A DNA stretch of 64,000 bases from a virus, in the IMG/VR virus record IMGVR_UViG_3300046737_000227, positions 1 to 64,000 of that record. One strand, written 5' to 3'. Positions 225 to 53,545 of this stretch are shown piece by piece. Made by a program: the position numbers and the translations under genes. Below the pieces are notes generated by a model. It searched no databases, was not told where the DNA came from, and worked only from the letters and a program-made list of their open reading frames with translations. Position 1 is the stretch's first letter, and every line of letters begins with the position of its first letter.

Positions 225-253
225 AATATCGCGCAGGTCGCGCGCCTTGTCAA
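225..253 (-). promoter_or_regulatory. class A promoter (TTGACA-N17-GATATT, 5 nt, ATG)
   Basis: Minus-sense TTGACA AGGCGCGCGACCTGCGC GATATT GAGCC ATG. The spacer contains a GC dyad around GACCT. Confidence 0.55.
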
Positions 254-362
254 ATTTAAAAAGTTGAGCGGGGTGGGGTTGTGAACCCACTGGCACCCAG
301 TAGCTACCCGGGCGTCCTTACAGAATTTGCTGACCGTCGTCGGCCTCTCCGCTCGTAAAATT

Positions 363-390
363 TGGTGACGGCCCGGGGACTCGAACCCCG
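363..390 (-). other. tRNA-like 3' module: T-arm, 3' acceptor strand, discriminator A and encoded CCA
   Basis: Minus-sense CGGGG TTCGAGT CCCCG GGCCGTC A CCA. I could not fold a D-arm or anticodon arm upstream. Confidence 0.5.
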
Positions 391-593
391 GCGCGTGCAG
401 CAGGCGTATCAAGAGTGTTGACGCTCTCTCCAATCCTGGTCAACCTGCACACGGAAACCAACGCCATCAGCTGAGGCGGGTCACCCTCCACCGGGGGTTC
501 CGCGGGTCGCGTTTGCAACCGCCTGCCGCTTCCACCCCAATAATCGGACTTTCCGATGGCTCTCGCCCGTCCGGGGTGACGCGCCTCAACCGA
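363..593 (-). ncRNA. candidate structured RNA ending in the tRNA-like module
   Basis: No credible ORF. Many nested or long-range complementarities, e.g. GTCACCCC with GGGTGAC, AGGCGG with CCGCCT, GTGCAGG with CCTGCTGCAC. Confidence 0.25.
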
Positions 594-655
594 CAAAAAT
601 CACTGTCGGTGGCGTGCGCTCCCGCACATTGTTTGGGCACCCCCAAACCACCGAC
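594..655 (-). ncRNA. candidate small RNA (three-way-junction fold plus U-run)
   Basis: The predicted TSS of the promoter at 661-689 falls on closing helix GTCGGTGG/CCACCGAC, which encloses hairpins TTTGGG-GGTG-CCCAAA and GTGCG-GGAG-CGCAC. AGTGATTTTTG follows. Confidence 0.35.
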
Positions 656-660
656 ATAGT

Positions 661-689
661 AAAGTGCCACACGTCCATCAAACCGTCAA
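661..689 (-). promoter_or_regulatory. promoter TTGACG-N17-CACTTT (repeat copy A)
   Basis: Minus-sense TTGACG GTTTGATGGACGTGTGG CACTTT. Identical to the element at 833-861. Confidence 0.5.
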
Positions 690-724
690 GCGGGTTTCGC
701 AACGTATTTTTTTCTGTCCAGCGT
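661..724. repeat. dispersed repeat, copy A
   Basis: Shares 48 bp with 833-880 and 40 bp with 1453-1492 (read by eye). Confidence 0.8.
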
Positions 725-736
725 CCTCAACTGACA

Positions 737-825
737 TCGACTGAAGAAGGCGAACCGACCGTCGTCCGCGACCACTGCCGCGGGGGCGAACCCTTTCCTA
801 CGACCGTTTCGCCTGCTTCAATCGA
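737..825 (-). ncRNA. candidate structured small RNA (long closing stem plus two hairpins)
   Basis: An 18-bp closing stem (808-825 with 737-754; one mismatch, one GU) encloses GGG-TTCG-CCC and CCGCG-GCAGTGGT-CGCGG hairpins. It starts 1-2 nt after the predicted TSS of the promoter at 833-861. Confidence 0.35.
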
Positions 826-832
826 CACCCAT

Positions 833-861
833 AAAGTGCCACACGTCCATCAAACCGTCAA
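833..861 (-). promoter_or_regulatory. promoter TTGACG-N17-CACTTT (repeat copy B)
   Basis: Same 29-nt element as 661-689. Overlaps the stop codon of the CDS at 858-1451. Confidence 0.5.
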
Positions 862-880
862 GCGGGTTTCGCAACGTATT
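833..880. repeat. dispersed repeat, copy B
   Basis: 48-bp identity with 661-708. Confidence 0.8.
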
Positions 881-1451
881 GTTTTACGGGATATAACACC
901 AGCTTAAACCGAAACTTAGATATCCGTGGAACCCGAACCAACTCGGCCCCTGCCGGGACATTTCCCCGCCGCCCATATTTTTTGCCCGTGCGTGCGTCGG
1001 CATAGTCGTGCCGCGGAGTTTTGCGCCCCTCATCGGTGCGGCCATCGGCCACCCAGTTCGCAGCGCGATAGATGGTCCCGGCGTGCCCGGCGCTGGGGTC
1101 CGCGTAGGATACAAGGAACTGCACTTCGGGATGGTTGCGGCGAATGTATTTCACGCTGCCGGAAATGGCCCATGTTTCGGCATTGGCGGGCACCTCGTCA
1201 AGCAGGTAAAGTCTGGCTAGCTCCCAAGTTTTTCCCCCATACCGCACATCCGACTGTTTGGGCGGTGCCGAGTATAGCACCATCCCAACCAGCTTACCAA
1301 AAGAAAAAATGCCGAGGGATAGCAGGACAATGGCGGGGCGTTTTTTGAGATAATGGACAGCGACGAATGGAGCGACCGCGCGCAGAGATACCGGCCGCAA
1401 TTCCGAATTTTTACGCCATTCGGAGTCAAAGACAGGTCCAAAGGGTTTCAT
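858..1451 (-). CDS. GNAT-fold protein, possibly Mom-like DNA-modification family (197 aa)
   Basis: The C-terminal part of ORF 858..1970, from MKPFGPVF, is protein-like. The block LVSYADPSAGHAGTIYRAANWVADGRT resembles what I recall of the Mom-type acyltransferase family. The N-terminal 173 aa of the long ORF is Arg/Pro-rich frame noise. Confidence 0.5.
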   Translation of the reverse strand: MKPFGPVFDSEWRKNSELRPVSLRAVAPFVAVHYLKKRPAIVLLSLGIFSFGKLVGMVLYSAPPKQSDVRYGGKTWELARLYLLDEVPANAETWAISGSVKYIRRNHPEVQFLVSYADPSAGHAGTIYRAANWVADGRTDEGRKTPRHDYADARTGKKYGRRGNVPAGAELVRVPRISKFRFKLVLYPVKQYVAKPA

Positions 1452-1452
1452 G

Positions 1453-1492
1453 GTCAAGCGGGTTTCGCAACGTATTTTTTTCTGTCCAGCGT
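1453..1492. repeat. dispersed repeat, copy C
   Basis: 40-bp identity with 685-724. Spans the 3' end of CDS 1454-1819 and abuts the ATG of CDS 858-1451. Confidence 0.8.
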
Positions 1493-3075: not shown

Positions 3076-3104
3076 AATGTCGCTCAGGTCGGTGCGATTG
3101 TCAA
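3076..3104 (-). promoter_or_regulatory. class A promoter
   Basis: TTGACA ATCGCACCGACCTGAGC GACATT CAGTT ATG. Confidence 0.6.
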
Positions 3105-3577: not shown

Positions 3578-3606
3578 AAGGTCGCCCAGGTCGGGCAGGT
3601 TGTCAA
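3578..3606 (-). promoter_or_regulatory. class A promoter
   Basis: TTGACA ACCTGCCCGACCTGGGC GACCTT ATCAC ATG. Confidence 0.6.
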
Positions 3607-5785: not shown

Positions 5786-5814
5786 AAGGTCGGCCATCCG
5801 TGGCCGGTTGTCAA
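5786..5814 (-). promoter_or_regulatory. class A promoter (variant dyad)
   Basis: TTGACA ACCGGCCACGGATGGCC GACCTT ATCCC ATG. Confidence 0.55.
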
Positions 5815-13931: not shown

Positions 13932-14165
13932 ATGAAGTATGTATTCCAGGTGCAGGTCCAACGCAGCTCCGGGCTGTGGGGCGGTAGCGACTACGTGCGA
14001 GGCAGTTTTCCTTCACTCGCTGCGGCCAAGCGCGCGGTCCAGACGAAGGGGTCCCCGCATGCGTCGTGCTATCGCATCATCAAGGTCCCGACGGAGTTTG
14101 TTGTGGCGTGGAAAGGCCGGACCCGTTTTGAACTCCCGAAAAATACCGTGTTGACGGAGAGCTAG
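13932..14165 (+). CDS. hypothetical protein (77 aa)
   Basis: Internal ATG of ORF 13890..14165, immediately after the upstream stop. Confidence 0.5.
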   Translation: MKYVFQVQVQRSSGLWGGSDYVRGSFPSLAAAKRAVQTKGSPHASCYRIIKVPTEFVVAWKGRTRFELPKNTVLTES

Positions 14166-14184
14166 ACCCGCGCTATCTTACCAC

Positions 14185-16251: not shown

Positions 16252-16430
16252 TGAAGACACTGAACCTCGACGAATTAATCGAGCGACTCGTGGCGATGCA
16301 AAAGCTCGGCGCCGGAAAACAGGAGGTCATCGTCTGGCACGACGGGTCGGTGGGCTGTGACGGCATTCGTCACGTGGAATCGTCGTTGGTGGGCGTTGAA
16401 GACGCGGCGCCATCTATCATCCTCACATGA
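16248..16430 (+). CDS. hypothetical protein (60 aa)
   Basis: ORF with ATGA overlap. Confidence 0.55.
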   Translation: MMKTLNLDELIERLVAMQKLGAGKQEVIVWHDGSVGCDGIRHVESSLVGVEDAAPSIILT

Positions 16431-17146
16431 GAGTTTTCGCTTACCTCCGGGTGTCCACGCAAGAGCAGGTGGACAAGAACGGGCTCGAGCGCCAGTGGGA
16501 CGCGATACAGTCGCTGCTCGCGTCGAAGCTGGACTGGACCATCGCACGGAAGTTTTCCGAGCACCAGTCCGGCGGCGTGACCTTCGAGAACCGCGGCATG
16601 CTGCTGGAGATGCTCGAGCTCGCGCAGACATACGACGTCGAGGCGATAGTCGTCGAGCGCGCGGACCGCATCGCGCGTGACCTGATGGCGCAGGAAATCT
16701 TTTTCGTGAAGTGCGGTGAACGGAACATCAAGGTGTTCGCCGCGGATACGGGCCAGGAGCTCACGTGCAAAGACGGCGACCCCACGCGCGTGCTGTTGCG
16801 GCAACTGCTCGGCGCGCTCGCGCAGTGGGAAAAAGCTGTCATTGTTAAGAAGCTGCAAGACGGTCGGCGGCGCACCGCGGCAAAGACTGGGATGCCCTGC
16901 GGCGGGCCGAAGGGTTACGGCACCCGCGGAGACGCCTCGGAGCAGGCGGACGAGCGGCGGGTCCTCAACTACATCCGGGAGCGCCGGCGGGGGGCGAACT
17001 GGACTTACAAGGAAATCGCGGACGAATTGAACCGGCGGCGGGAGCGGGCGCCGGGCGGCAAATTTTACTGGCATACCAGCACCGTTATGCACCTTGACAA
17101 AAAGCAAATTCCGGACACTTCTTCGGGGACATGGCGACCACATTAA
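16427..17146 (+). CDS. serine recombinase (resolvase/invertase-type catalytic domain, 239 aa)
   Basis: MRVFAYLRVSTQEQ places the catalytic Ser in the typical YxRVST context. VVERADRIARD follows, then a short C-terminal DNA-binding-like region. Confidence 0.85.
   Translation: MRVFAYLRVSTQEQVDKNGLERQWDAIQSLLASKLDWTIARKFSEHQSGGVTFENRGMLLEMLELAQTYDVEAIVVERADRIARDLMAQEIFFVKCGERNIKVFAADTGQELTCKDGDPTRVLLRQLLGALAQWEKAVIVKKLQDGRRRTAAKTGMPCGGPKGYGTRGDASEQADERRVLNYIRERRRGANWTYKEIADELNRRRERAPGGKFYWHTSTVMHLDKKQIPDTSSGTWRPH
17094..17121 (+). promoter_or_regulatory. class B promoter
   Basis: TTGACA AAAAGCAAATTCCGGA CACTTC TTCGGGGAC ATG(17131). Embedded in the recombinase 3' end. Confidence 0.5.
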
Positions 17147-26075: not shown

Positions 26076-26791
26076 AGACAATCGTGTCCGTTCATGGTTA
26101 TAAGGGAGACGAGCACCAGATTCGCGCGCTCTTGCCGTGCTACGAGCACCACAAACTGCCCATTGTCATCCTTACGCCGACGGACAGCCGCATCCCGGAG
26201 ATGGGTCCGCACATCTGCCGTTTCGGTGGGCTGCGTGAATACGTGGGGGCGAAAAGTCTGGCGCGCCAGCTGGAGCATTGGAAAATCCTGTTGGAATACG
26301 ACGCGACGCACTACCTCTGCAACGATTCGGACAGCTTCTGCGTGTCCGCACAGCTCCCGCAATACATCTACGACGAGGACGTGCTGTGGAGTAACGAGGT
26401 GTCCGACATGTTCCACGTCCGCCCGGCCACCTACACGCTTCCGCGGCTCGCGTTCCAGCCCCCCTACTTTTTCTCGCGTGGAATCCTGGAACGGCTCATT
26501 GCCGCTGCACCGCTCGTCGTGTTTGAACCCCAGACCCCGTTCATCGACTGGTATTTCATGGCGGTCGCGCACGCCGGCGGGATTCCGCACAAAAACTTTC
26601 GAGACGGCATCAGCTGCGGAACCGCTGACTCTAGCATTCACCCAACTGCCAAGGACGGAGGGCTGGGGCTACGGGCCATGACCAACGCGGTTCAGAACCA
26701 CGGAGCAATTTTTCTCCATGCGGTCAAGAGCGCGCAGGTCCGCCGACAGATGGAATTTGTGCGCAAGCTTTACGTCCGGAACCACCCATGA
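26048..26791 (+). CDS. hypothetical protein, possible glycosyltransferase (247 aa)
   Basis: The acidic motif YLCNDSDSF could be DxD-like. Cassette context. Confidence 0.45.
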   Translation: MPDAIHQGVKTIVSVHGYKGDEHQIRALLPCYEHHKLPIVILTPTDSRIPEMGPHICRFGGLREYVGAKSLARQLEHWKILLEYDATHYLCNDSDSFCVSAQLPQYIYDEDVLWSNEVSDMFHVRPATYTLPRLAFQPPYFFSRGILERLIAAAPLVVFEPQTPFIDWYFMAVAHAGGIPHKNFRDGISCGTADSSIHPTAKDGGLGLRAMTNAVQNHGAIFLHAVKSAQVRRQMEFVRKLYVRNHP

Positions 26792-27726
26792 ACAAGAACT
26801 CCAGAATTTACGTCGCGGGTCACCGCGGGCTCGTCGGGGATGCCGTCCTGCGGCACCTGCGCGCGAACGGCTACACCAACATTCTCACCAAGACGCACAC
26901 CGAGCTGGACCTGACGGACCCGGTCGTGGTGCGCTGGTTCTTTTCCTCGCACGAGCCGGAATACGTTTTTCTGTGTGCCGCGCACGTCGGGGGCATCCTG
27001 GCGAACGACCAGAACCGCGTGGAATTCCTGACGAAGAACCTCGCCATCCAGAACAACGTCATCTTGAGCGCCGCCGCGTATGGCGTGAAAAAGCTGTTGT
27101 TCCTGGGGTCGTCCTGCATCTACCCGAAAAACGCCGAGCAGCCCATCAAGCCGAACGCGCTGCTCACCGGTGCTTTTGAACCGACGACCGAGGCATACGG
27201 CATCGCCAAGGTGGCCGGCATCCGCCTGTGCCAATACCTGCGTGACGAGCAAGGCTGTAACTTCATCGCCGCACAGCCGTGCAACCTCTACGGGCCGAAC
27301 GACCGGTTTGACTCCGTTCGGTCGCACGTCGTGCCGGGGCTCATTACTCGCCTGCACCGCGCAAAATCCCTGGGGATGTCCGAGCTGGACGTCTGGGGCG
27401 ACGGGTCCGCGCAGCGGGAACTGCTCTATGCCGACGACCTCGCCAGCGCGTTGCTGCTGCTCATGCACGCATACGACGGGCGCGAGGTGGTGAACGCCGG
27501 CAGCAGCGACGAATGGACCATCAAGGAAATCGCCGACGAAGTCCGCCGGGTGGTCGGTTACCGAGGCGTGCTTTTCTTCGATGACTCGAAACCGACCGGT
27601 GTTTCCCGCAAGGTTTTGGACAATTCTTTCATCAGGAGCCTGGGCTGGACCCCGCAAGTATCTTTCCCCGAAGGACTTGAGAAGACCTACACGGGATTCC
27701 TGCAGCGGACCACATTGGGCTCTTGA
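26788..27726 (+). CDS. fcl: GDP-L-fucose synthase (GDP-4-keto-6-deoxy-D-mannose 3,5-epimerase/4-reductase)
   Basis: Collinear with E. coli Fcl as I recall it: IYVAGHRGLVG, AAHVGGILAN, KLLFLGSSCIYPK, EPTTEAYGIAKVAGI, NLYGPND, and a DDSKPTGVSRKVLD tail. Confidence 0.92.
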   Translation: MNKNSRIYVAGHRGLVGDAVLRHLRANGYTNILTKTHTELDLTDPVVVRWFFSSHEPEYVFLCAAHVGGILANDQNRVEFLTKNLAIQNNVILSAAAYGVKKLLFLGSSCIYPKNAEQPIKPNALLTGAFEPTTEAYGIAKVAGIRLCQYLRDEQGCNFIAAQPCNLYGPNDRFDSVRSHVVPGLITRLHRAKSLGMSELDVWGDGSAQRELLYADDLASALLLLMHAYDGREVVNAGSSDEWTIKEIADEVRRVVGYRGVLFFDDSKPTGVSRKVLDNSFIRSLGWTPQVSFPEGLEKTYTGFLQRTTLGS

Positions 27727-44745: not shown

Positions 44746-47700
44746 ATGCCGAGCGTCATTGAGGATTTAGGGGCAGGGGAATCTTTCACGGACACGCCCG
44801 TCCCGGTTGTGCCAGCTGAGGTGCCCGTCTACGGCGGCACGGCTCGGGGACTGAAATCCTCGAAGCCCATCACGCCGGAAGTTCAGGCGCAGCTCGACCA
44901 GTCCAGCAAAGGGATGCGGGCCGCACTCGCGGAAAAGGGAATCGAAGCCCCGCCGATGCTGCCCGAGGAGGCCGCGAAAGCCGCCGCTGAAAAAGAAAAG
45001 GAAGATAAAGCGTTCGCCGGACTGCAGGAGGTGGACCCTTTTAGCGTGTTGCAAGAAGTCGACCCCCGCTCTGTTGGGGAGGAGCCCGAATTCCGCGGCG
45101 TCCCGTTGGCCGACCGACTCGATACTGAGAAGCCCGATGTTCTCGCCAAGGACCCGAAGTTCAATGTGCTCGAGCACATCGCGACGAACCGCGACAATAT
45201 TTTTCAGGACCCCAATCGCTACAAAAAAGCGCTCGACACTTATCGCGCGCAAAAAGTCGTGGGCACCACGGCGAACAAGGTCTGGGAATCCGCCAAGAAA
45301 GAAACGGGTCCCCTGCTTTTGGAAATTCTCAAATCTTTGCCGAAGCGGCTCGAGAATGTTTCTGATATCGCCATTGGTCCGGTGATTAACGACATCACGG
45401 CAAAGTTTCGTCACGAGAGTGCCGACCCCGCGCTTCGCGCGCAGTGGGATAAAATGACAGACGACAACCGCGAGGCCGCCATCGCCGAGGCCATCGGCGG
45501 AACGCAGCTCGCCGTGGGCTCGCTTCAGGACATGGTGCGCCAGGGCGCGCGCAAGCTGACGGGTCCCGGATTCAATTTGAAACAGCTCAAGGTGACCCCT
45601 TCGGGTGTCTCGATGGAGCGCAAAGACTGGAGCAAAATTTCTGATGAAGAAGTCAAAAGCGAGTTATTCAAAGACCTCGGCTGGCACGACACCGTCCAAG
45701 GTATCTCGTCCGGCCAAACCGTCAAAGACCTCGTCAGCGAAGGCGTCCAGCTCAACCCGGAAAACATCAAGCTACTGAGCTTGACGGACCCGGTCACGCT
45801 CGTCGCCACTGCCGGCGGACTCAAGGCCGTGGGCGTCGGTGGCAAAGTTCTTTTTACCGCGGCCAACGAAGTTGGCGCGGGCAAAGCGCTGAACTACCTC
45901 GGACAGCTTTCCCAAACCGCCGCGGCGAAAACCACGCAGCTCGTCGGCACGGGCATCGAAAAAACCGGTAAGGTCATCGCCTCTGCGCTTCCCATCTCGG
46001 GCCAGGGCATTAGCGTCGGCGCCGGACTGAGTCTTTTAGGCGTCCCACACAAGGCCATCCTGGCGGCGCGTATCGCGGCCCCCGTTTTACAGAAGACGGG
46101 ACAGGTCGTTCGGGAAATCGGCGAAGCCGCCGGGGCCGCCCCTAAAGGGCAGCTGTCCCTGGGTCTGGAAACCACGACGGGCGCCAAGCTCGTCAACGCG
46201 GCGAAGACCGTTTCAAAATTTGTTCAACCGCCCGTGGCCGGCGCCGTCAAGGGCGCCGTGGGAACTGCGCCGCTGGCACTCGCGACCGACGAACCGCAAG
46301 GCGGGCTGCTCGGCGTGGGTGCCGTCGGCGGGGCCGTGCACTCTGCCCTCGGAGCCGTCAAAGGCGCGGTCGCCGAAGCCGGCGCGAAAAAATATTTCGA
46401 CCCGGGCCAAATCAACTGGGAAGCGACCCCGTCTCCTGGCTACGATAACTTCACCGAGCTGAACAAAGTTCACGAGCAGGTCGCCGCGTCCACGCCGTCT
46501 AACGCGCGGAACATGGTGGATAGCTTGCGCGAAACGCTGCGCCCGTTCGGCAAGAAACTTTTCCTCGTCGACGACGCGGCTTTTTCCAAGGCCATCGCTG
46601 ACGATACGGTCCGTGCGAACGGTGGCAAATCGCTCACGCCGGAACAACAGGCGGCGGTCACCCAGGAATCCAAAGCGCGCGGCGTTTCAAAAATCTGGAT
46701 GGCAGATGACGCGGGCAAGGGCGAGATGGTTACGCTCGTCAAAGGCTCCGCGAACGCTCCACACGAGTTTGCCCACGTCCTGGAATCCGTAATGGAGCCC
46801 GCGGGACGCGAAGCACTGCACGACGCGGTCCGCAAGGCATACACGCCCGGAGAACTGGAAGCCTTGCGGCAGCATTACGAAAAATCTTTGGGCAGCCGTT
46901 TTGCCGCGGACGTGCCGGGCGTGATGCAAGAAGTCCGCAGCGAATTCATCGCCGACAATTGGGCGAACCTGCTTTACAACACGTCGCTCGAGTCACTCGG
47001 GCTGCCGAAACCGAAATCCTCGTTCCGCGCAAAAATGCTGGACGCGGCGTTGACCTTGGGTGACGCGCTGGGTATCGACATGACGGCAGGCCGCGGCACC
47101 CCGGGGTTGAACCTGAAGCCGAGCTATAGCCTGCGCAAGGCGCTCGAGAACGCGAGCGGTGAAATTTTAGCGGAGCGTGACCAGCGCGCCGCGCAGCAAG
47201 CGACTGCTCCCGAGGTGAAGCCGGTGGCTGAAGCGCCGGCGGCTCCGGTCGAAGTTCCCGTCGAATCCGTGCAGCCGGAGCTGGATTTTACCACGCCCCC
47301 GCCCAAAGAAATTCCCGCTCAAGGCGAGCTCAATTTTGAGACGCCGTCGGCACAACCGAAAGTGGCCCCGGCAGCGACCCCTCCCGCGCCGGCACCCACC
47401 GAAGTCCCGCCGACGGTGTCTCCCTCCCGTGGGGTTTCCACCCCCGAGGCCACCGCCGCCCGTGCCGAGGTCACCAATACCGGGGTCGGTGCGGCCTGGG
47501 CCAAAGGCAAGGACAACGAGCAAGCGGTGACGGAAGTGAACAAGGCACTCGATGAAAGCGTCGGGCTGACCGTCGAACACGCCGGCGCTCCCAAAGCGTC
47601 TTTTAAGCCGACGGAGCCCGAACGCGCCGCCGAGGTGGAAGAAGGCCGCGGGTTGCCGCCAGAACAGCGCGAGCTGCATGCCGGGAAAAAATATCCCACG

Positions 47701-50700
47701 CGATGGGAGCAGACGAAAAGCGGGGAACCGCAGCTCGTCGCCCGTAGCGTGGACAAGGTTCTCTCCAACGTGGACCGCGCGGTGCAGTGGGGGAAATCCG
47801 CGGGCGAAGAAATCCCGTGGGAGACGGACGCGAACGGTGCGCTCACCGAAGCCGGCACCAACGAACTTTTGTCGGACCTGAACGCCTACTGGGATAACCA
47901 GGACCGAGGTTTTCGTGGCGGGGGCAAGCAGCTGGTTCGTCCCGGCGACGAGCTCGGTGCGGCAATCCCGCGTGAGCAAGGCGAGGGAAAAGTTTTAGGC
48001 GACGCCAAGGAACAATGGCTTAATCTGCTTCAAGGTAAAGACGTCGGCCCGCCCGAGACGGCGCGCGCCCAAAAAGGCAAGTTACCTGCCAACATTAAGG
48101 CGCAGGAAATCCGCGCTGCCCAGGGCGACGTGTCCGAACGCATCGCGCCGGGGACCGACATTCCGATTTATCCCGAGAAGGTGACCGGGGGCCGCGGACC
48201 CGTAGAAATCAAGGAGACGAACCCGCTGCGCAATCGTCTGCGCGCCGCCGGCATGCCGGTGGGGGACCTGCACACGGTCGTCGAGCGACTCAACGCTGCG
48301 GACATCGTCAAAGCCGAACGCGCCCCCGAATTAACGGGACGCGGCGGACAGACGGACACCGCCCGCGCGGGATACCTGACGGACCAGCCTGTGGACAAAA
48401 CTATCGCAGACGTGCTCGCGGATTCCCCGGACGACTGGATGAAACGGTTCGGTCCGAAGAATACGTTGACGGGGTCGGCGTATGAGCTGGGGCTGAACCT
48501 CACGTCGAAGGACGAGTTGAACGCGTTGCGCGAGGCGCAGTCCAAGGCGTCCGCTGCCCAAGTCTCTGCCCTCGCAGAAGCCCGGGCGGGGAACCTCGAC
48601 AAGCTGGACGAGGCTTACGCGCTCGCGACCAAGGCCCAATTTTTCCGTGAGGCGATTGAAGCCGCCACGGACACCGCTTCTGCCGCCGGTCCATCCGGCT
48701 GGCGCCGCGCGTTCCCGGACCGCACTGCTCCGTTCGCGGAAGTCAGTGCCGCAGCCGCGGAACGCGCTGGCTTCCTTTCTGAAAAAGAACTGAAGTCCAT
48801 TCGCAATGGCGAAAAAGATGGTGAAACTTTCAACGGGGACGGAACCGTTTTTGTCCCGCCCGAGGACGCCTCGCTGGACGTCGTCACGCTCGCTAGCGTG
48901 AACCTGCCGGCGGCAGAGCTGAACGCGAAGAACGTCGCGGCGGCGTTGAAGCCCTACAAGGGCCTTCTGGGGAATGAGAACATCAAAGCGGGAATCTTCC
49001 GGCTGTCGGAGCCCGATGCCGAAGGCCGGCCCCAGGTCAGCGTGGATGTGAACGCCATCGTGGACCAGAAGCACCGCAAGTCGTCTTTGGCTTTTGCCCG
49101 TGCGAATAACCAGGAAGCCATTTTCGACATGGCCCGCGGCAAAACGGTTGATGCCGGCGGCACGGGTAACACGGTCCTCCGGGACCCGAAAGAAATCGCC
49201 CAGGCCGCGGATGCGTTGCAGGCCGGGGAAAATTACCTGGAGACGAAAGCGCGTTTCAAAGCGGCGGAAGCGAGGCGCAAGGGTCCGGTTCGTCAGGCGA
49301 TTGAAGACATCAAGGGGGACCTCGATATCACCGTCAAAGCGATTACCCGAGAATCCGAAGCCGCCGCGCGGAAACGCGTCGCGGAGACGGACTACTCGAA
49401 ATACAACGTGCCCGAGGAACAAAAGCCGAAGGGCAAGGGACCGACTGGTTGGGCACTTCCCGACGGGCAGTTCATCCGACTCGACACGGACTATCATCAG
49501 ACGTGGCTCGGGGAACACTCCGAGCAGTTGAACAAACAATACGGAACCGAATTCTCCAAGGACGCCACGGTCGAGGACCGACAAGCCGCGCTCAACAAGG
49601 GATTCATCCGCGTTCGCGAATACGGCGGCAAGCTGGCCATCGAAGCGAACCAGAAATTTTTCCGTGGCAAGGGCAAGCGCGCGATTGAAGTGCTGCTCGA
49701 CGACCACGCCAAAGACATCGACTCCGCGCGAATCACGCTCCTGGATAACGAGGGCAAGGTGACGGACACGATGGCGGACAACAAGCTTTTTGAGAGTGAA
49801 AATCCGGCACAGGATTTAATGGACCTAGTGGATGCGGTTGACCCGAACAAGGTCGCTCCGAAGCGGGGTCCCTCGGCCATTCAAATCGCGCGCAGCCGCG
49901 AGGGTTACCTCACGCCGGAAATTCCGACGGACGAGGCCATCACCGACGCGCTGAGCGAGGAAAAGAAACCTTTTGTCGGAGCCGCGCGCGACCTGGATGA
50001 AGGCACCCCGGTCGGCCTGCGGATTGACATCCCGGCTTATAACCGCACGGGCAAATACGTCATCACCGTCCACGAAAAAGCCGAAGGCGGGCGCGTGGGC
50101 AAGCGGATTGGTTACGACTCCATCGCGACCGTGGACAACCCGACCTTTTTCTCCAACACCAAGGGCGCGGCAAAAATCGCTGAGGGCGCGGCGAAGTTTC
50201 CCATCGCGACCGTCGAGGGCGAATGGAATCCCTCGCGTGAACTGCCGGCGGACCTCTCCGAGTGGACCGAGGTTGGTTTCAATCCCACCAAGCACGACTA
50301 TTTCTACGAGAAGGGAACCGACGAACCGGTGACCGGCGGAACCCAGGCCGTGAGCGTGGGCAACTCGGTTTTCGTCAAGGACGCCACGTTCGGCAGCAAA
50401 GCGGACGTCGCGGCACGCGGCGGGTATCTCCCTGGCGAAAAGCTGACGCCCGAGACGGCAGAAGCCGCGGCGGACAAGCACAACGAGGAATACACCAAGT
50501 CGTATCCCGAGGCATACCCCACGCGGTTCATCCGCGACTCCAAAGGCAAGCTCAAGCTGCAAGGCGGCAAGCTCGTCCCCGGTGACGAGGAAGCCGTTCT
50601 CGACAAAACGCCGCTCGCGCTTGACGCGGTGCGGGAGAACCCGGACGCGCCGGCGCACGAAGTTATTTCGGACGCGCTCGCGGACAAAATCGTGGCCGAA

Positions 50701-51660
50701 GCTCACGAGGCGCTCAAGGACGAATCCATGAAGGCCGGCCTGACGTGGTATGCCGACGCGGTGAAGCTCATCAACAAATTTTTCGGCAAGGACGCTTCGC
50801 TGTTCGCGCAGCTGTTGGCGGCGACGTCGCCGCAGAACGGCGTGCAACCGAACTTCGCCTACGCGGTGGACGCCTGGAACGCCGTGAAGCGTGGCGAGTA
50901 TGAGCCGTTCGTGAAAAAATATCTCGAGGGACGCGAGCAGTGGAAGACCGGTGGCACGCCTGAAATCGCCGAGTGGGAAGCCGAGAAGGGCAAGAAGTGG
51001 AAAGCCGGCACGGGTGCCGCGGCCCAAGGTCTGCGCAACAACTTTTTGACGTGGTGGGTGGACAAGCACGAGATTTTGCCCAAGCGCGAAGGCGGCAAGC
51101 TTTACGGCATGCATTCGTTCCCTGTGCTCGATGTCATCTCCGGCACGTGGCTCGAGGACGTGGGCGGCCCGAAGGTGCGGAACTTTTTGGCGAACCTCAC
51201 AGGCGAAGGACACGACGCCACCATCGACATTTGGGCCACACGATTCCTGATGCGTATCGCGCAGTCCGAGGACACCCTCAAAGGTCGCTGGCGCGTCGCA
51301 CCGCCGGCGGGATGGCAAATTTCCGCGGAGAACTTTAACCTTGCGCAATCCGCGTTCCGAAAAGCCGCTGAAAAGTTTGGCACCACGCCGGACTCGCTGC
51401 AAGCGTTGGTCTGGTTCTCGGAAAAACATCTCTGGGAACAGAAAGACTGGACCGGGTATGTCGGCGCGGCGAAATCGGACTACGCATATTGGCTGAAGTC
51501 GCTGGAGCCCGGCGAACACCCCGAGACTTACAACATCCCGGTCAGGGCCAAGGAAGAAGCCACTCGCCAAGGCCGCGAGGAACGCGCCCGCGCGGCGGCG
51601 AAGCGGAAAAATGCCGCTCAGGGCGAACTTGACATTCCGGTCAACCCGGTGGAAGATTGA
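44746..51660 (+). CDS. giant multidomain virion protein (2304 aa) with HEXXH motif
   Basis: Uninterrupted 6.9-kb ORF. HEFAH at 46762-46776. Several Ala/Pro-rich linkers. Position matches ejected internal core proteins. Confidence 0.75.
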   Translation: MPSVIEDLGAGESFTDTPVPVVPAEVPVYGGTARGLKSSKPITPEVQAQLDQSSKGMRAALAEKGIEAPPMLPEEAAKAAAEKEKEDKAFAGLQEVDPFSVLQEVDPRSVGEEPEFRGVPLADRLDTEKPDVLAKDPKFNVLEHIATNRDNIFQDPNRYKKALDTYRAQKVVGTTANKVWESAKKETGPLLLEILKSLPKRLENVSDIAIGPVINDITAKFRHESADPALRAQWDKMTDDNREAAIAEAIGGTQLAVGSLQDMVRQGARKLTGPGFNLKQLKVTPSGVSMERKDWSKISDEEVKSELFKDLGWHDTVQGISSGQTVKDLVSEGVQLNPENIKLLSLTDPVTLVATAGGLKAVGVGGKVLFTAANEVGAGKALNYLGQLSQTAAAKTTQLVGTGIEKTGKVIASALPISGQGISVGAGLSLLGVPHKAILAARIAAPVLQKTGQVVREIGEAAGAAPKGQLSLGLETTTGAKLVNAAKTVSKFVQPPVAGAVKGAVGTAPLALATDEPQGGLLGVGAVGGAVHSALGAVKGAVAEAGAKKYFDPGQINWEATPSPGYDNFTELNKVHEQVAASTPSNARNMVDSLRETLRPFGKKLFLVDDAAFSKAIADDTVRANGGKSLTPEQQAAVTQESKARGVSKIWMADDAGKGEMVTLVKGSANAPHEFAHVLESVMEPAGREALHDAVRKAYTPGELEALRQHYEKSLGSRFAADVPGVMQEVRSEFIADNWANLLYNTSLESLGLPKPKSSFRAKMLDAALTLGDALGIDMTAGRGTPGLNLKPSYSLRKALENASGEILAERDQRAAQQATAPEVKPVAEAPAAPVEVPVESVQPELDFTTPPPKEIPAQGELNFETPSAQPKVAPAATPPAPAPTEVPPTVSPSRGVSTPEATAARAEVTNTGVGAAWAKGKDNEQAVTEVNKALDESVGLTVEHAGAPKASFKPTEPERAAEVEEGRGLPPEQRELHAGKKYPTRWEQTKSGEPQLVARSVDKVLSNVDRAVQWGKSAGEEIPWETDANGALTEAGTNELLSDLNAYWDNQDRGFRGGGKQLVRPGDELGAAIPREQGEGKVLGDAKEQWLNLLQGKDVGPPETARAQKGKLPANIKAQEIRAAQGDVSERIAPGTDIPIYPEKVTGGRGPVEIKETNPLRNRLRAAGMPVGDLHTVVERLNAADIVKAERAPELTGRGGQTDTARAGYLTDQPVDKTIADVLADSPDDWMKRFGPKNTLTGSAYELGLNLTSKDELNALREAQSKASAAQVSALAEARAGNLDKLDEAYALATKAQFFREAIEAATDTASAAGPSGWRRAFPDRTAPFAEVSAAAAERAGFLSEKELKSIRNGEKDGETFNGDGTVFVPPEDASLDVVTLASVNLPAAELNAKNVAAALKPYKGLLGNENIKAGIFRLSEPDAEGRPQVSVDVNAIVDQKHRKSSLAFARANNQEAIFDMARGKTVDAGGTGNTVLRDPKEIAQAADALQAGENYLETKARFKAAEARRKGPVRQAIEDIKGDLDITVKAITRESEAAARKRVAETDYSKYNVPEEQKPKGKGPTGWALPDGQFIRLDTDYHQTWLGEHSEQLNKQYGTEFSKDATVEDRQAALNKGFIRVREYGGKLAIEANQKFFRGKGKRAIEVLLDDHAKDIDSARITLLDNEGKVTDTMADNKLFESENPAQDLMDLVDAVDPNKVAPKRGPSAIQIARSREGYLTPEIPTDEAITDALSEEKKPFVGAARDLDEGTPVGLRIDIPAYNRTGKYVITVHEKAEGGRVGKRIGYDSIATVDNPTFFSNTKGAAKIAEGAAKFPIATVEGEWNPSRELPADLSEWTEVGFNPTKHDYFYEKGTDEPVTGGTQAVSVGNSVFVKDATFGSKADVAARGGYLPGEKLTPETAEAAADKHNEEYTKSYPEAYPTRFIRDSKGKLKLQGGKLVPGDEEAVLDKTPLALDAVRENPDAPAHEVISDALADKIVAEAHEALKDESMKAGLTWYADAVKLINKFFGKDASLFAQLLAATSPQNGVQPNFAYAVDAWNAVKRGEYEPFVKKYLEGREQWKTGGTPEIAEWEAEKGKKWKAGTGAAAQGLRNNFLTWWVDKHEILPKREGGKLYGMHSFPVLDVISGTWLEDVGGPKVRNFLANLTGEGHDATIDIWATRFLMRIAQSEDTLKGRWRVAPPAGWQISAENFNLAQSAFRKAAEKFGTTPDSLQALVWFSEKHLWEQKDWTGYVGAAKSDYAYWLKSLEPGEHPETYNIPVRAKEEATRQGREERARAAAKRKNAAQGELDIPVNPVED

Positions 51661-51835: not shown

Positions 51836-52468
51836 ATGCCCGTGATGCCCGAAGACATTCAGCCCGTTGCCGCCGCCCCCGCTGCGGCTGACGAGGTCAC
51901 CCCCGCCGAGGAACCCGAAGCCAAGGCCCCCGTTATGCCGCCCGAGCTGGCGAAGATTCCCGCCCTCGCCGCCCTGGCGAACGGGTCCCCGCCGGCTACC
52001 TACGGGCCGCTCAAGTCGGAAGACCCTCAGCTCAAGGTCATTGGGAAGAAAGAGAACGCCGAGGCCCTGAAAAAGATGGGTTTCGCCGCGTTTGAATCCG
52101 AATCCCAGCCGGGGAACTTCGTGCTTTTTAACGGGCTACTTGTTAAGCCCCAGGAAGTTATGGACGCCGACAAGGCGGGCCAGCTCGATTCCATCGCCGT
52201 GCCCTTTCAGCAGCTGGCGGCCTCATTTGAATCCGCCCGGTTGGATGGCGGCAGTTCCGAAGTTCCCGCAGAGGGGGCGCCCGCTGCGCCAGCGCCCGCT
52301 GGTGAAGCCGCAGCCGCTCCGATGCCCTCCGCTCCCCCCGCTCCTGCCGGTGCCCAGAAACGCCTCCTGGCGGCTCGGGTGACGAATTTGCAGCCCGGCA
52401 GTCCGACATCGGGTCCGGCGCCCGGTCGCGGTCGCGTGCTCAACGCGATTTCAAAACCAGTCGTATGA
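51836..52468 (+). CDS. hypothetical Ala/Pro-rich protein (210 aa), last rightward gene
   Basis: ORF. Its 3' end overlaps the convergent gene by 18 nt. Confidence 0.55.
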   Translation: MPVMPEDIQPVAAAPAAADEVTPAEEPEAKAPVMPPELAKIPALAALANGSPPATYGPLKSEDPQLKVIGKKENAEALKKMGFAAFESESQPGNFVLFNGLLVKPQEVMDADKAGQLDSIAVPFQQLAASFESARLDGGSSEVPAEGAPAAPAPAGEAAAAPMPSAPPAPAGAQKRLLAARVTNLQPGSPTSGPAPGRGRVLNAISKPVV

Positions 52469-53545
52469 CCAAGCGTGGGGGGCCTCGGGGGTGTTCCACC
52501 CCTTCCCCCAGAGCAGGCTCAGCCGCTCGAAATAACGCTGATAGTCGTGCTTGAGGGTATACATCGAATATTTTTGGATTGCCCGCGCGCGAATGGCTTT
52601 CCGGTCCAGGGTGTTCACCTGCCGGCAGGCGTCCGCAAACTCCCCCAGGTAGTGACATCGGAACCCGGACATGCCGTGCACCACCGTCTCCGTAAACCCA
52701 GCCCAGTCCGTTGAAATGACCGGCGTGCCGCAAAGCTGCGCCTCCACGGCCACGCAGCCGAACGGCTCGGGGTAGAGTGACGGGCAAAACACCGCCTGCG
52801 CCCGGGCCATCATCTCGTTGCGGGTCTTCCAGTCCGGGGCACCACAATACTCGTGACCCCCGGTGATGTTCCGCAGGCTGCCGCCGTGACCGATGAGCTT
52901 CAATTTCACGCCGGCAGCGGTCGCGGCGTCACACGCTACGCGGACCCCCTTTTCGTGAGTCAGTCGACCGACGTAAAGAAAATAGTCGTCCGGTGTGGCG
53001 AGGTGAAATTGGTCGGGGTCAAAAAAGACGGGGATGACCGTATCGAAGAAACGCGCGTTAGAGATGCGTTGCGCCCCATAACAGAAGTGCATCCACGCAT
53101 AGCTCTCGAACACCCGGAACGGCGCCCAGTTGCCCTCATACCCGATGGAATACTCCACGCCCAGGAGGTCCTTGTGCGCGTCAAAAACTGGCTTCTGCGA
53201 GTGGCCCCCGATGGAGAGCAGGAAGTCCCGCGATTGCTTGCGCTTGGCGATTTCGGCAATCATCCAGGGGTTCGACTGTTGGTAGAGCGGGGTTTTTCCG
53301 TCCACGGGCGCGTGCTGGTATTCCGTCTGCCCCAGGTAGCGCTTGCGGTCGCCCTCGGGCATCACGTTGATGAACTCGGTGCACGGGGCGGTGGAGCCCT
53401 CGGCCCCGTAAAGGTAGACCGTGTGGCCCAGGGAGCGCATCATGCGGCAGAACCGGTGGCCGGCGGCGGCGAACCCGTCGAGTGAAAAGTCTTCGCTGAC
53501 GGGGCAATTCGGCAAGCCGAGCAGATGTATCCGAAGCGGGGTCAT
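52451..53545 (-). CDS. GT4/GT1-type (GT-B fold) glycosyltransferase (364 aa)
   Basis: YVGRLTHEKGV...LIGHG...PSLYPEPFGCVAVEAQLCGTPVISTDWAGFTETV matches the E-x7-E / EPFG...EA..G.PV signature. Confidence 0.85.
   Translation of the reverse strand: MTPLRIHLLGLPNCPVSEDFSLDGFAAAGHRFCRMMRSLGHTVYLYGAEGSTAPCTEFINVMPEGDRKRYLGQTEYQHAPVDGKTPLYQQSNPWMIAEIAKRKQSRDFLLSIGGHSQKPVFDAHKDLLGVEYSIGYEGNWAPFRVFESYAWMHFCYGAQRISNARFFDTVIPVFFDPDQFHLATPDDYFLYVGRLTHEKGVRVACDAATAAGVKLKLIGHGGSLRNITGGHEYCGAPDWKTRNEMMARAQAVFCPSLYPEPFGCVAVEAQLCGTPVISTDWAGFTETVVHGMSGFRCHYLGEFADACRQVNTLDRKAIRARAIQKYSMYTLKHDYQRYFERLSLLWGKGWNTPEAPHAWSYDWF

Follow-up and report, generated by a model that had tools for sequence, protein, structure and literature searches.

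A predicted operon of structured RNAs with a tRNA-like terminal unit in an uncultivated soil phage

Close to the start of IMG/VR record IMGVR_UViG_3300046737_000227, whose positions 1 to 64,000 are analyzed here (the window), a 638-nucleotide (nt) stretch without called genes raises the question of what a phage might encode there, all the features of the locus lying on the minus strand. A first-pass annotation had described the region as non-coding and as the seat of tandem promoters driving small RNAs. The non-coding character of the region was maintained, but two conserved units, RNA M (594-466) and RNA T1 (468-363), had been left undescribed, the latter ending in ACCA exactly where the annotated region began. 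The minus strand of positions 262-861 very probably represents a structured RNA operon with a tRNA-like terminal unit, the latter being a kind of phage RNA overlooked by standard tRNA and RNA-family searches. As previously proposed, no plausible open reading frame (ORF) exists here: the 92-amino acid (aa) ORF at 318-596 has no Pfam match, the substitutions between homologues show no third-codon-position bias (14/17/9), and the stop-free stretches of the locus are not conserved among homologues.

T1, M, and their homologues in related phages

T1 (363-468, minus strand) is a 106-nt tRNA-like RNA with an acceptor stem, a T-arm, and an encoded CCA. In T1 numbering, the two ends pair in a 6-bp acceptor stem (1-6/97-102), followed by a 9-nt linker containing an invariant GG, by a 9-bp body helix (16-24/69-77), and by the T-arm, whose 6-bp stem (78-83/91-96) closes the loop UUCGAGU. 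The body helix is capped by a 44-nt, possibly knotted domain, and no anticodon arm is present; further elements of the fold are two inner helices (31-34/65-68 and 41-45/54-58) and the invariant segments UUGAC (26-30) and GUCAA (47-51), a candidate pseudoknot. The 3' end was read from the sequence: the minus strand from 392 to 363, GCCGGGGUUCGAGUCCCCGGGCCGUCACCA, comprises the T-arm, the 3' strand of the acceptor stem, the discriminator A, and the CCA (366-363, with the CCA at 365-363), directly followed by AAAUUUU (362-356). A similar A/U run follows the CCA of every T-type RNA of the relatives and might represent a termination or 3'-trimming signal. The 12-bp acceptor/T coaxial helix (6+6), a T-loop of the UUCRANY type, and the discriminator with CCA are therefore all present in the branch; together with G+1, U-1, and the 3' ACCA, they would make T1 resemble an RNase P-type substrate. 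U-1 and G+1 were found at 7/7 T-type 5' ends, belonging to five lineages.

The comparison with the related locus L024 supports this fold. The two T1 sequences are both 106 nt long and align without gaps at 62% identity; in the proposed fold, 97% of the cells are paired, versus 39-43% when the partners are slid, and 11 out of 35 pairs are altered on both sides, a value reached by 0/500 shuffles. Every pair of the acceptor stem and of the T-stem is kept in L024, with three compensatory changes. The unpaired columns are at least as conserved as the paired ones (33% versus 40% changed); since the loops are conserved like the stems, recognition by a host factor is suggested.

RNA M (466-594, minus strand), located just upstream, is a 129-nt molecule combining a closing helix of 13+7 bp with a three-way junction and a long hairpin, the apical loop of which reads as a palindrome (GUUGCAAA in the window, GGCC in L024). 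Its fold has a z score of -5.1, and its 20-bp helix is kept with covariation in related phage contigs, RNAalifold disclosing compensatory changes at 14/35 pairs. A covariance model trained on four sequences (the window, L002, L020, and L024) scored 111 bits on this strand of the window versus 24 on the other; the scores for the four training sequences ranged from 105 to 116 bits on this strand versus 24 to 41 on the opposite one, and a shorter copy was matched in L019 with 45 bits. The G-U pairs and the strand asymmetry of these scores indicate that M is an RNA encoded on the minus strand rather than a DNA palindrome. The hairpin GGUUGCAAAC, whose loop is self-complementary, occurs both in the apex of M (about 505-518) and in the T2 RNA of L002 (about 914-926), L024 having a different palindrome (GGUGGCCACC) in its place; these loops hint at loop-loop dimerization or at a dimeric binding protein. 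The segment GGAAAGUCCG of M was also considered, because of its likeness to an RNase P RNA motif, and discarded, since the other M copies do not conserve it.

None of the standard searches recognizes these RNAs. ARAGORN listed 0 genes in the window and in six loci, and Rfam at gathering thresholds returned nothing over the whole window. In the region 1-1600, at E values up to 10, neither tRNA nor tRNA-Sec was matched, and only chance hairpin-type matches were obtained (miRNA models on RNA 1, ctRNA on the end of the module R3, and mascRNA on the T-arm); no match in the region exceeded 26 bits, and T1 in particular matched neither the tRNA nor the transfer-messenger RNA (tmRNA) models. Of the covariance-model and covariation checks suggested by the first-pass annotation, the Rfam side thus came back empty, but M and T1 do covary in related phages. 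An additional reading, which took the promoter's TTGACGG for the 5' acceptor strand of a tmRNA-like RNA of 324 nt, was abandoned: L024 and L002 place the true 5' strand just after M, and TTGACG is the -35 common to protein-gene promoters.

The relatives used in these comparisons were gathered through the helicase (24 IMG/VR loci and 10 metagenome loci), further contigs being recruited through homologues of a conserved 119-aa gene. Six distinct lineages harbor RNAs between the same two conserved genes, and M precedes a T-type RNA in five lineages (the window, L024, L002, L020, and L019). Many other relatives carry no RNAs at this place, and the locus is absent from syntenic ones including L006, L008-10, L014-19, L028-35, L049, L050, and L054-58. 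Because of this patchy presence, the RNA locus can be regarded as accessory, the RNAs being gained and lost among phages like accessory genes. In L019, a short M copy (90 nt) and a divergent T2-like RNA (955-1245) are located behind their own TTGACT-N17-GACATT promoter elsewhere in the early region; this different location suggests that the RNA cassette moves within the phage group. No tRNA genes were found in the loci of the group that were examined.

In the relatives, the T-type RNAs include a larger tRNA-like form, T2, with an 8-bp acceptor stem containing one bulge and a 4-bp T-stem; its copies lie at 5600-5780 in L005, 786-951 in L002, 4568-4694 in L020 (with an internal deletion of about 70 nt), and 1088-1245 in L019. 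The Rfam tRNA-Sec model gave 31 bits (E = 0.019) on the core of the L020 copy, below its gathering score of 47. The 3' acceptor strand of T2 has two alternative partners, i.e., the 5' end of the RNA or an internal GGCGAAGGG (AACAAGGGU in L019), and the complementarity of both is preserved from lineage to lineage, so that T2 might adopt two folds or contain a second processing site.

Outside this group, no trace of the RNAs was detected. BLAST of the region 200-1500 against cultured phages was negative, as were IMG/VR scans for exact copies of the promoter and of the 3' end of T1; pattern scans for the T1 core, the T2 core, and M retrieved only contigs of the same phage group. No new RNA variant emerged from a helicase-profile scan of metagenomes, nor from the contigs with homologues of the 119-aa neighbor, which provided extra copies and several RNA-free arrangements. 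The 24-nt 3' end of T1 is absent from representative bacterial genomes, in which the T1 core pattern had two chance matches inside coding sequence; there is therefore no host tRNA match and no clue to the host.

Promoters, start sites, and the other modules of the array

Both copies of the TTGACG-N17-CACTTT motif highlighted by the first-pass annotation were recovered on the minus strand, at 689-661 and 861-833. In promoter A (833-861), the -35 element TTGACG (861-856) and the -10 element CACTTT (838-833) are separated by a 17-nt spacer with the TG of an extended -10, and the predicted start is T827/G826. Promoter B, embedded in the repeat copy B (660-713), has its -35 at 689-684, the extended -10 TG at 669-668, and the -10 at 666-661, with a predicted start at G655; a conserved counterpart precedes the RNAs in L002, L005, L011, L020, and L024. 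The two predicted promoters thus share the traits of the sigma-70 type, i.e., a TTGACG -35, a 17-nt spacer, the TG of an extended -10, a weak -10, and a fixed distance to the start. TGGCAC could be taken for part of a sigma-54 promoter, but this reading was discarded, since the spacing is wrong and no GC element is present.

The two sites belong to a larger promoter family. A window-wide scan for TTGAC[A/G/C]-N16-18-nA[C/T][A/C/T]TT disclosed 14 sites, compared with 0.56 in shuffled sequences. At six of the 14 an ATG is located exactly 5 nt past the -10, and these sites would therefore give leaderless mRNAs starting 6 nt after the -10. The ATG-spaced promoters (225-253, 2478-2506, 3076-3104, 3578-3606, and 5786-5814 on the minus strand, and 14151-14179 on the plus strand) have the consensus TTGACA/G, 17 nt, GAYMTT or TATCTT, exactly 5 nt, and ATG; the early genes of the phage appear to be expressed as leaderless mRNAs with the start at the A of ATG. 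In relatives without the RNAs, the same TTGACG is the -35 of a leaderless gene, and its TGA is the stop of the conserved 119-aa upstream gene; L018, for instance, has TTGACA-N17-CACCTT-ACCCC-ATG. At the RNA locus, the spacing rule predicts starts at G655, the first base of RNA 2, and at T827, 1 nt before RNA 1, in agreement with the earlier statement that the starts fall within about 2 nt of the closing helices; in L019, L020, and L024 the predicted start is the first G of M. These observations support the idea that the two TTGACG-N17-CACTTT sites act like real promoters, and the grammar itself (start 6 nt after the -10, leaderless genes) makes 5' ends predictable in an uncultivated soil phage group.

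Both promoters are included in a 54-nt direct repeat (660-713 and 832-885, 98% identical), the 23-nt core of which, ATACGTTGCGAAACCCGCTTGAC, occurs three times versus 0 expected. The third, partial copy (1453-1492, minus strand) consists of 40 nt identical to 685-724 and forms the 3'-terminal part of the conserved 119-aa gene (1454-1813), whose product terminates in ..DRKKYVAKPA*. Each of the segments 1453-1492, 857-885, and 685-724 (minus strand) closes a reading frame with ..YVAKPA*, the stop TGA being embedded in the TTGAC of the -35; accordingly, promoter A overlaps the stop codon of the adjacent Mom-like gene. Copy B matches the terminal part of the 119-aa gene over 40 nt and copy A over 51 nt, and the Mom-like gene (858-1451) is flanked by two copies of the repeat. 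This arrangement suggests the insertion of the Mom-like gene as a cassette by recombination at the promoter repeats: since the promoter repeat carries the last codons of the upstream genes, cassette recombination rather than a designed promoter pair would have shaped it. The simplest history might be a tandem duplication of a promoter-plus-RNA unit, followed by recombination at the repeat inserting the Mom-like cassette.

The view of tandem promoters driving separate RNAs was not supported. Since no terminator was recognized between promoter A and promoter B, the locus is better described as one polycistronic array than as two independent units. The scan for intrinsic terminators listed none on the minus strand of the locus; U-runs are located 5 nt after RNA 2 and, downstream of T1, after ACCA and three A's (359-356).

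RNA 1 (736-826, minus strand, 91 nt) has a closing helix of 11+7 bp and two inner hairpins (z = -5.1), so that the previously proposed fold stands, with its bounds shifted from 737-825 to 826-736. RNA 2 (605-655, minus strand) is a 51-nt element whose helix GUCGGUGG/CCACCGAC closes two hairpins (z = -3.9), as already described; it is followed by the linker AGUGAUUUUU (595-604), a possible pause or RNase E site, and the same UGAUUUUU linker is found after M in L024. Both RNAs were found in this contig only, no homologue being detected by BLAST or covariance-model search in about 35 related contigs. With filters off, the M model gave 20.2 bits on RNA 1, on the outer helix only, and 9 bits on RNA 2; the closing helix of RNA 1 would thus be shared with the downstream M rather than with RNA 2, to which RNA 1 is similar in general form only. 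The proposed family of phage small RNAs does exist, but its conserved members are the M and T types and not RNA 1 and RNA 2. All the modules fold better than shuffled sequences (z scores from -2.3 to -5.1).

The last module, R3 (262-354, minus strand), is cloverleaf-like (z = -3.8) and closed by a 6-bp stem; it has four arms and a degenerate T-like loop, lacks a CCA, and is followed by a U5 run. It is akin to T3 of L002, which ends in CCA, and, by BLAST similarity, to the 3' portion of the RNA of L019; its closing stem covaries, being GAGCGG/CCGCUC in the window versus GAGUGG/CCACUC in L002.

Processing, possible function, and rival explanations

It is known that RNase P and other enzymes measure the length of the tRNA top half (PMC4919913), and that RNase P processes phage regulatory RNAs, tmRNA, and MALAT1 (PMC4919922). 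On the basis of the features described above, the array might be an operon of non-coding RNAs that this soil phage carries as an accessory and expresses early. Transcripts would arise from its two sigma-70-type promoters, one beginning with the first base of RNA 2 and the other 1 nt ahead of RNA 1; promoter A would read through promoter B to give R1 - R2 - M - T1, possibly followed by R3. RNase P would cut between M and T1, at the U-1/G+1 junction, and the A/U-rich trailer would be trimmed back to CCA by a 3' maturation of the RNase E or exonuclease type, with AU-rich linkers separating the other modules. Processing of the array by RNase P is rather likely, and so, to the same extent, is the anatomy taken together with this processing model. 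The products would be stable structured RNAs including an anticodon-less tRNA mimic, in which the T-loop can dock on the GG of the 9-nt linker and a 9-bp helix carries a small knotted domain with invariant loops; M would be a co-transcribed partner or a stabilizing leader. More tentatively, T1 might occupy a host protein or ribonucleoprotein recognizing the tRNA top half or the CCA end, acting as a decoy (sponge), e.g., against acceptor-end-directed toxins or defense enzymes, or hijacking that factor; this role is possible rather than probable.

Several points weigh against this interpretation. All the promoters, start and processing sites, and 3' ends are predictions, and the two CACTTT sites were not listed by a generic sigma-70 scan, which omits them because CACTTT is a poor -10. 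The covariation of T1 comes from two distinct sequences only; the putative UUGAC/GUCAA pairing is invariant, and the bases that distinguish a 6/6 from a 7/5 branch are invariant in both sequences, so that covariation cannot discriminate between these splits, even though the 6/6 split is favored because C78-G96 pairs, whereas G7/G96 would mismatch. R1, R2, and R3 have little or no comparative support, and R3 is the least secure part of the map. As far as function is concerned, no partner protein is encoded near the locus, no antisense complementarity of at least 14 nt for the RNAs exists elsewhere in the 64-kb window, where the matches did not exceed chance, and a decoy for anticodon nucleases is unlikely because T1 has no anticodon loop. 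Among the larger ORFs tested, there are no tRNA-related enzymes, Ro60, or tyrosine integrase.

Different explanations were considered for the same data. T1 and the T2, T3, and R3 RNAs might be irregular translating tRNAs, i.e., suppressor or missense tRNAs similar to allo-tRNAs or tRNA-Sec and overlooked by gene finders. The non-7/5 acceptor/T branches of about 12 bp (apparently 6/6 in T1 and 8/4 with one bulge in T2) recall the 8/4 and 9/3 allo-tRNAs and the irregular tRNA polycistrons of soil Acidobacteria and phages (PMC5389517), which share with the present RNAs bulged 8/4 variants (here, the T2 of the relatives), extra arms, five-stem junctions, a polycistronic organization, an origin from soil metagenomes, and a suspected non-translational role (Mukai et al. 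2017); moreover, the tRNA-Sec model scored on the L020 T2 core, and a loop of 7 nt in R3 (GUAGCUA) places a U where U33 would be. However, both an anticodon arm and a long variable arm are retained in allo-tRNAs, many of which decode in E. coli, whereas T1 has neither arm, lacks their tRNA-Sec-like D-arm, and carries the 9-bp helix and the knotted domain instead; the 6/6 split is not described for allo-tRNAs (PMC5389517), and no toxin-antitoxin neighbor is seen at this locus. The loop at the anticodon position of T2 has only 4-6 nt, and ARAGORN and Rfam were silent as reported above, so that a decoding role appears quite improbable. T1 might also be a miniature tmRNA-like molecule engaging SmpB, EF-Tu, or the ribosome, thus blocking or exploiting trans-translation. 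Its topology is indeed that of the tmRNA tRNA-like domain, with an acceptor stem formed from both ends, a canonical T-arm, a GG linker replacing the D-arm, a long helix abutting the T-arm, a possible pseudoknot beyond it, and an encoded CCA. On the other hand, the alanine identity pair G3-U70 is missing (the pair is U3-G70 in the window, but C3-G70 in L024), neither a resume codon nor a tag frame or a stop is conserved, further pseudoknots are lacking, and the branch is apparently 6/6 rather than 7/5; T1, with its 106 nt, is far below the known tmRNAs, and neither ARAGORN nor any Rfam tmRNA model detects it, all of which renders this reading very improbable.

The P4 CI RNA is an RNase P-matured phage regulatory RNA obeying the same logic as the C4 RNA of P1/P7, and the RNAs of the array might be antisense regulators of this type, with their conserved loops pairing with phage or host transcripts. 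Phage regulatory RNAs maturing through RNase P are known (PMC4919922), and C4, like the RNAs proposed here, is a small phage RNA freed from a longer transcript through a tRNA-like acceptor end recognized by RNase P; furthermore, the T1 loops GGUUGACC, GUCAAC, and GAUAC are invariant, in keeping with the conservation of the unpaired columns. C4 and CI, however, act antisense on nearby phage targets, whereas no such target of at least 14 nt was found in the window, there is no sequence similarity, the Rfam C4 model has no match, and T1 possesses a full T-arm elbow; this explanation is considered unlikely. According to another hypothesis, the locus would contain DNA elements only, the tRNA-like 3' end being the core of a phage attachment site (attP), copied from a host tRNA 3' end and serving for integration, and the hairpins an origin, terminators, or repeat junk. 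It is true that tRNA 3' fragments are common at phage attP sites and that the locus lies upstream of replication genes and is rich in inverted repeats, but covariation extends over the acceptor strand at the 5' end, the internal helices, and the T-stem, which is unneeded for an attP core, and an RNA is favored by the G-U pairs and by the strand-asymmetric scores of the M model; besides, the T1 3' end has no counterpart in the representative bacterial genomes, and the ORFs tested yielded no tyrosine integrase, but only a 239-aa resolvase-type protein 16 kb off. This hypothesis is hardly credible. Nor is a set of Y-RNA-like (YrlA-type) partners of a Ro60/Rsr protein anything but highly improbable, although YrlA RNAs mimic tRNA, with a T-arm and D-like elements, and occur in phages, some of them being cut by RNase P, receiving CCA, and being processed with a second RNA from one precursor (PMC4201824), and the T2 of the relatives contains GGCGAAG, which fits the GNCGAAN0-1G motif. 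That motif is absent from T1, and no Rfam Y RNA or YrlA model matched. The domain order of YrlA is permuted, with the ends forming the Ro-binding stem and the acceptor closed by a loop, whereas the ends of T1 form the acceptor, and YrlA always lies beside rsr, while neither the ORFs tested nor the 20-kb surroundings of the locus yielded a TROVE/Ro60 gene.

Since the defining features of the tRNA, tmRNA, allo-tRNA, YrlA, and C4 families were looked for and not found, the RNAs of the array are not considered members of them; judging from sequence and fold, the locus would be a variant within the tRNA-like non-coding kind, nearest to the tmRNA tRNA-like domain by architecture, to allo-tRNAs and irregular polycistrons by context, and to RNase P-matured phage RNAs and MALAT1/mascRNA by logic. 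In MALAT1/mascRNA, too, a tRNA-like unit joined to another structured RNA is split off by tRNA-processing enzymes, giving a non-decoding product, and the MHV68 TMER transcripts likewise link a tRNA-like unit to other structured RNA, with separation by tRNA enzymes and no decoding; both differ from the array in being eukaryotic or herpesviral, in the polymerases involved, and in the order of the modules. The stable RNAs C and D of T4 (about 120-140 nt, of unknown function) lie in a tRNA cluster and are co-transcribed and processed with tRNA-type machinery; they are likened to the present RNAs by description only, and they lie among genuine tRNA genes, which the examined loci of this phage group lack.

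Phage tRNA genes are now regarded in part as counter-measures to host tRNA-targeting defenses, and, to our knowledge, the known counter-defense examples are decoding tRNAs. In the favored scenario of an RNase P-processed array, instead, a phage lineage would keep, under clear structural selection, only the part of tRNA that is read by processing enzymes, the CCA-adding enzyme, EF-Tu-type binders, and acceptor-directed toxins. If T1 were indeed a decoy or a hijacker, an RNA layer would be added to the phage-host conflict, and M and T would be two new RNA families overlooked by current annotation pipelines. A bolder version, in which T1, T2, and T3 form an undescribed class of anticodon-less top-half mimics (6/6 or 8/4), produced by RNase P from the leader M and used in an RNA-based counter-defense, either as decoys absorbing host immune or toxin enzymes that attack tRNA acceptor ends or elbows or to capture a host factor handling tRNA, with the palindromic loop of M, itself a second new RNA, serving for dimerization or protein binding, is regarded as doubtful.

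Genomic setting of the array

The window belongs to a contig of 75 kb from a soil metagenome (JGI 3300046791, Ga0495500_0000049), whose phage content includes collagen-like tail-fiber proteins, a DNA polymerase fragment, an SNF2 helicase, a Mom-like protein, and a phage sigma factor. The RNA locus is surrounded by small early genes. On one side, it adjoins the Mom-like gene of anti-restriction type (858-1451, minus strand; Pfam Mom, E = 6e-28), the upstream neighbor, which ends in ..QYVAKPA* inside the repeat copy A; on the other side, it is followed by a leaderless 69-aa gene (219-10) and by the helicase. The promoter of the 69-aa gene (225-253, minus strand; TTGACA-N17-GATATT, with the ATG 5 nt later) marks the end of the RNA locus.

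The sigma-70-family factor encoded by the phage (58627-59493, minus strand) contains regions 2 and 4 (Pfam E = 5e-14 and 3e-9) and may define a second promoter class. Beyond the window, the same contig (L001, 15202-16146) encodes a protein with dGTP_diPhyd_N (MazZ-like) and DUF4406 domains; in combination with the Mom-like gene, this protein suggests that the phage DNA may carry modified bases. The resolvase-type protein is a small serine recombinase (16427-17146, plus strand). Most of the large ORFs of the window have no Pfam or PHROG match; other genes recorded in it are those for an NAD-dependent sugar epimerase (26788-27726, plus strand) and a group-1 glycosyltransferase (52451-53545, minus strand), and an ORF of 2304 aa extends from 44746 to 51660 on the plus strand.

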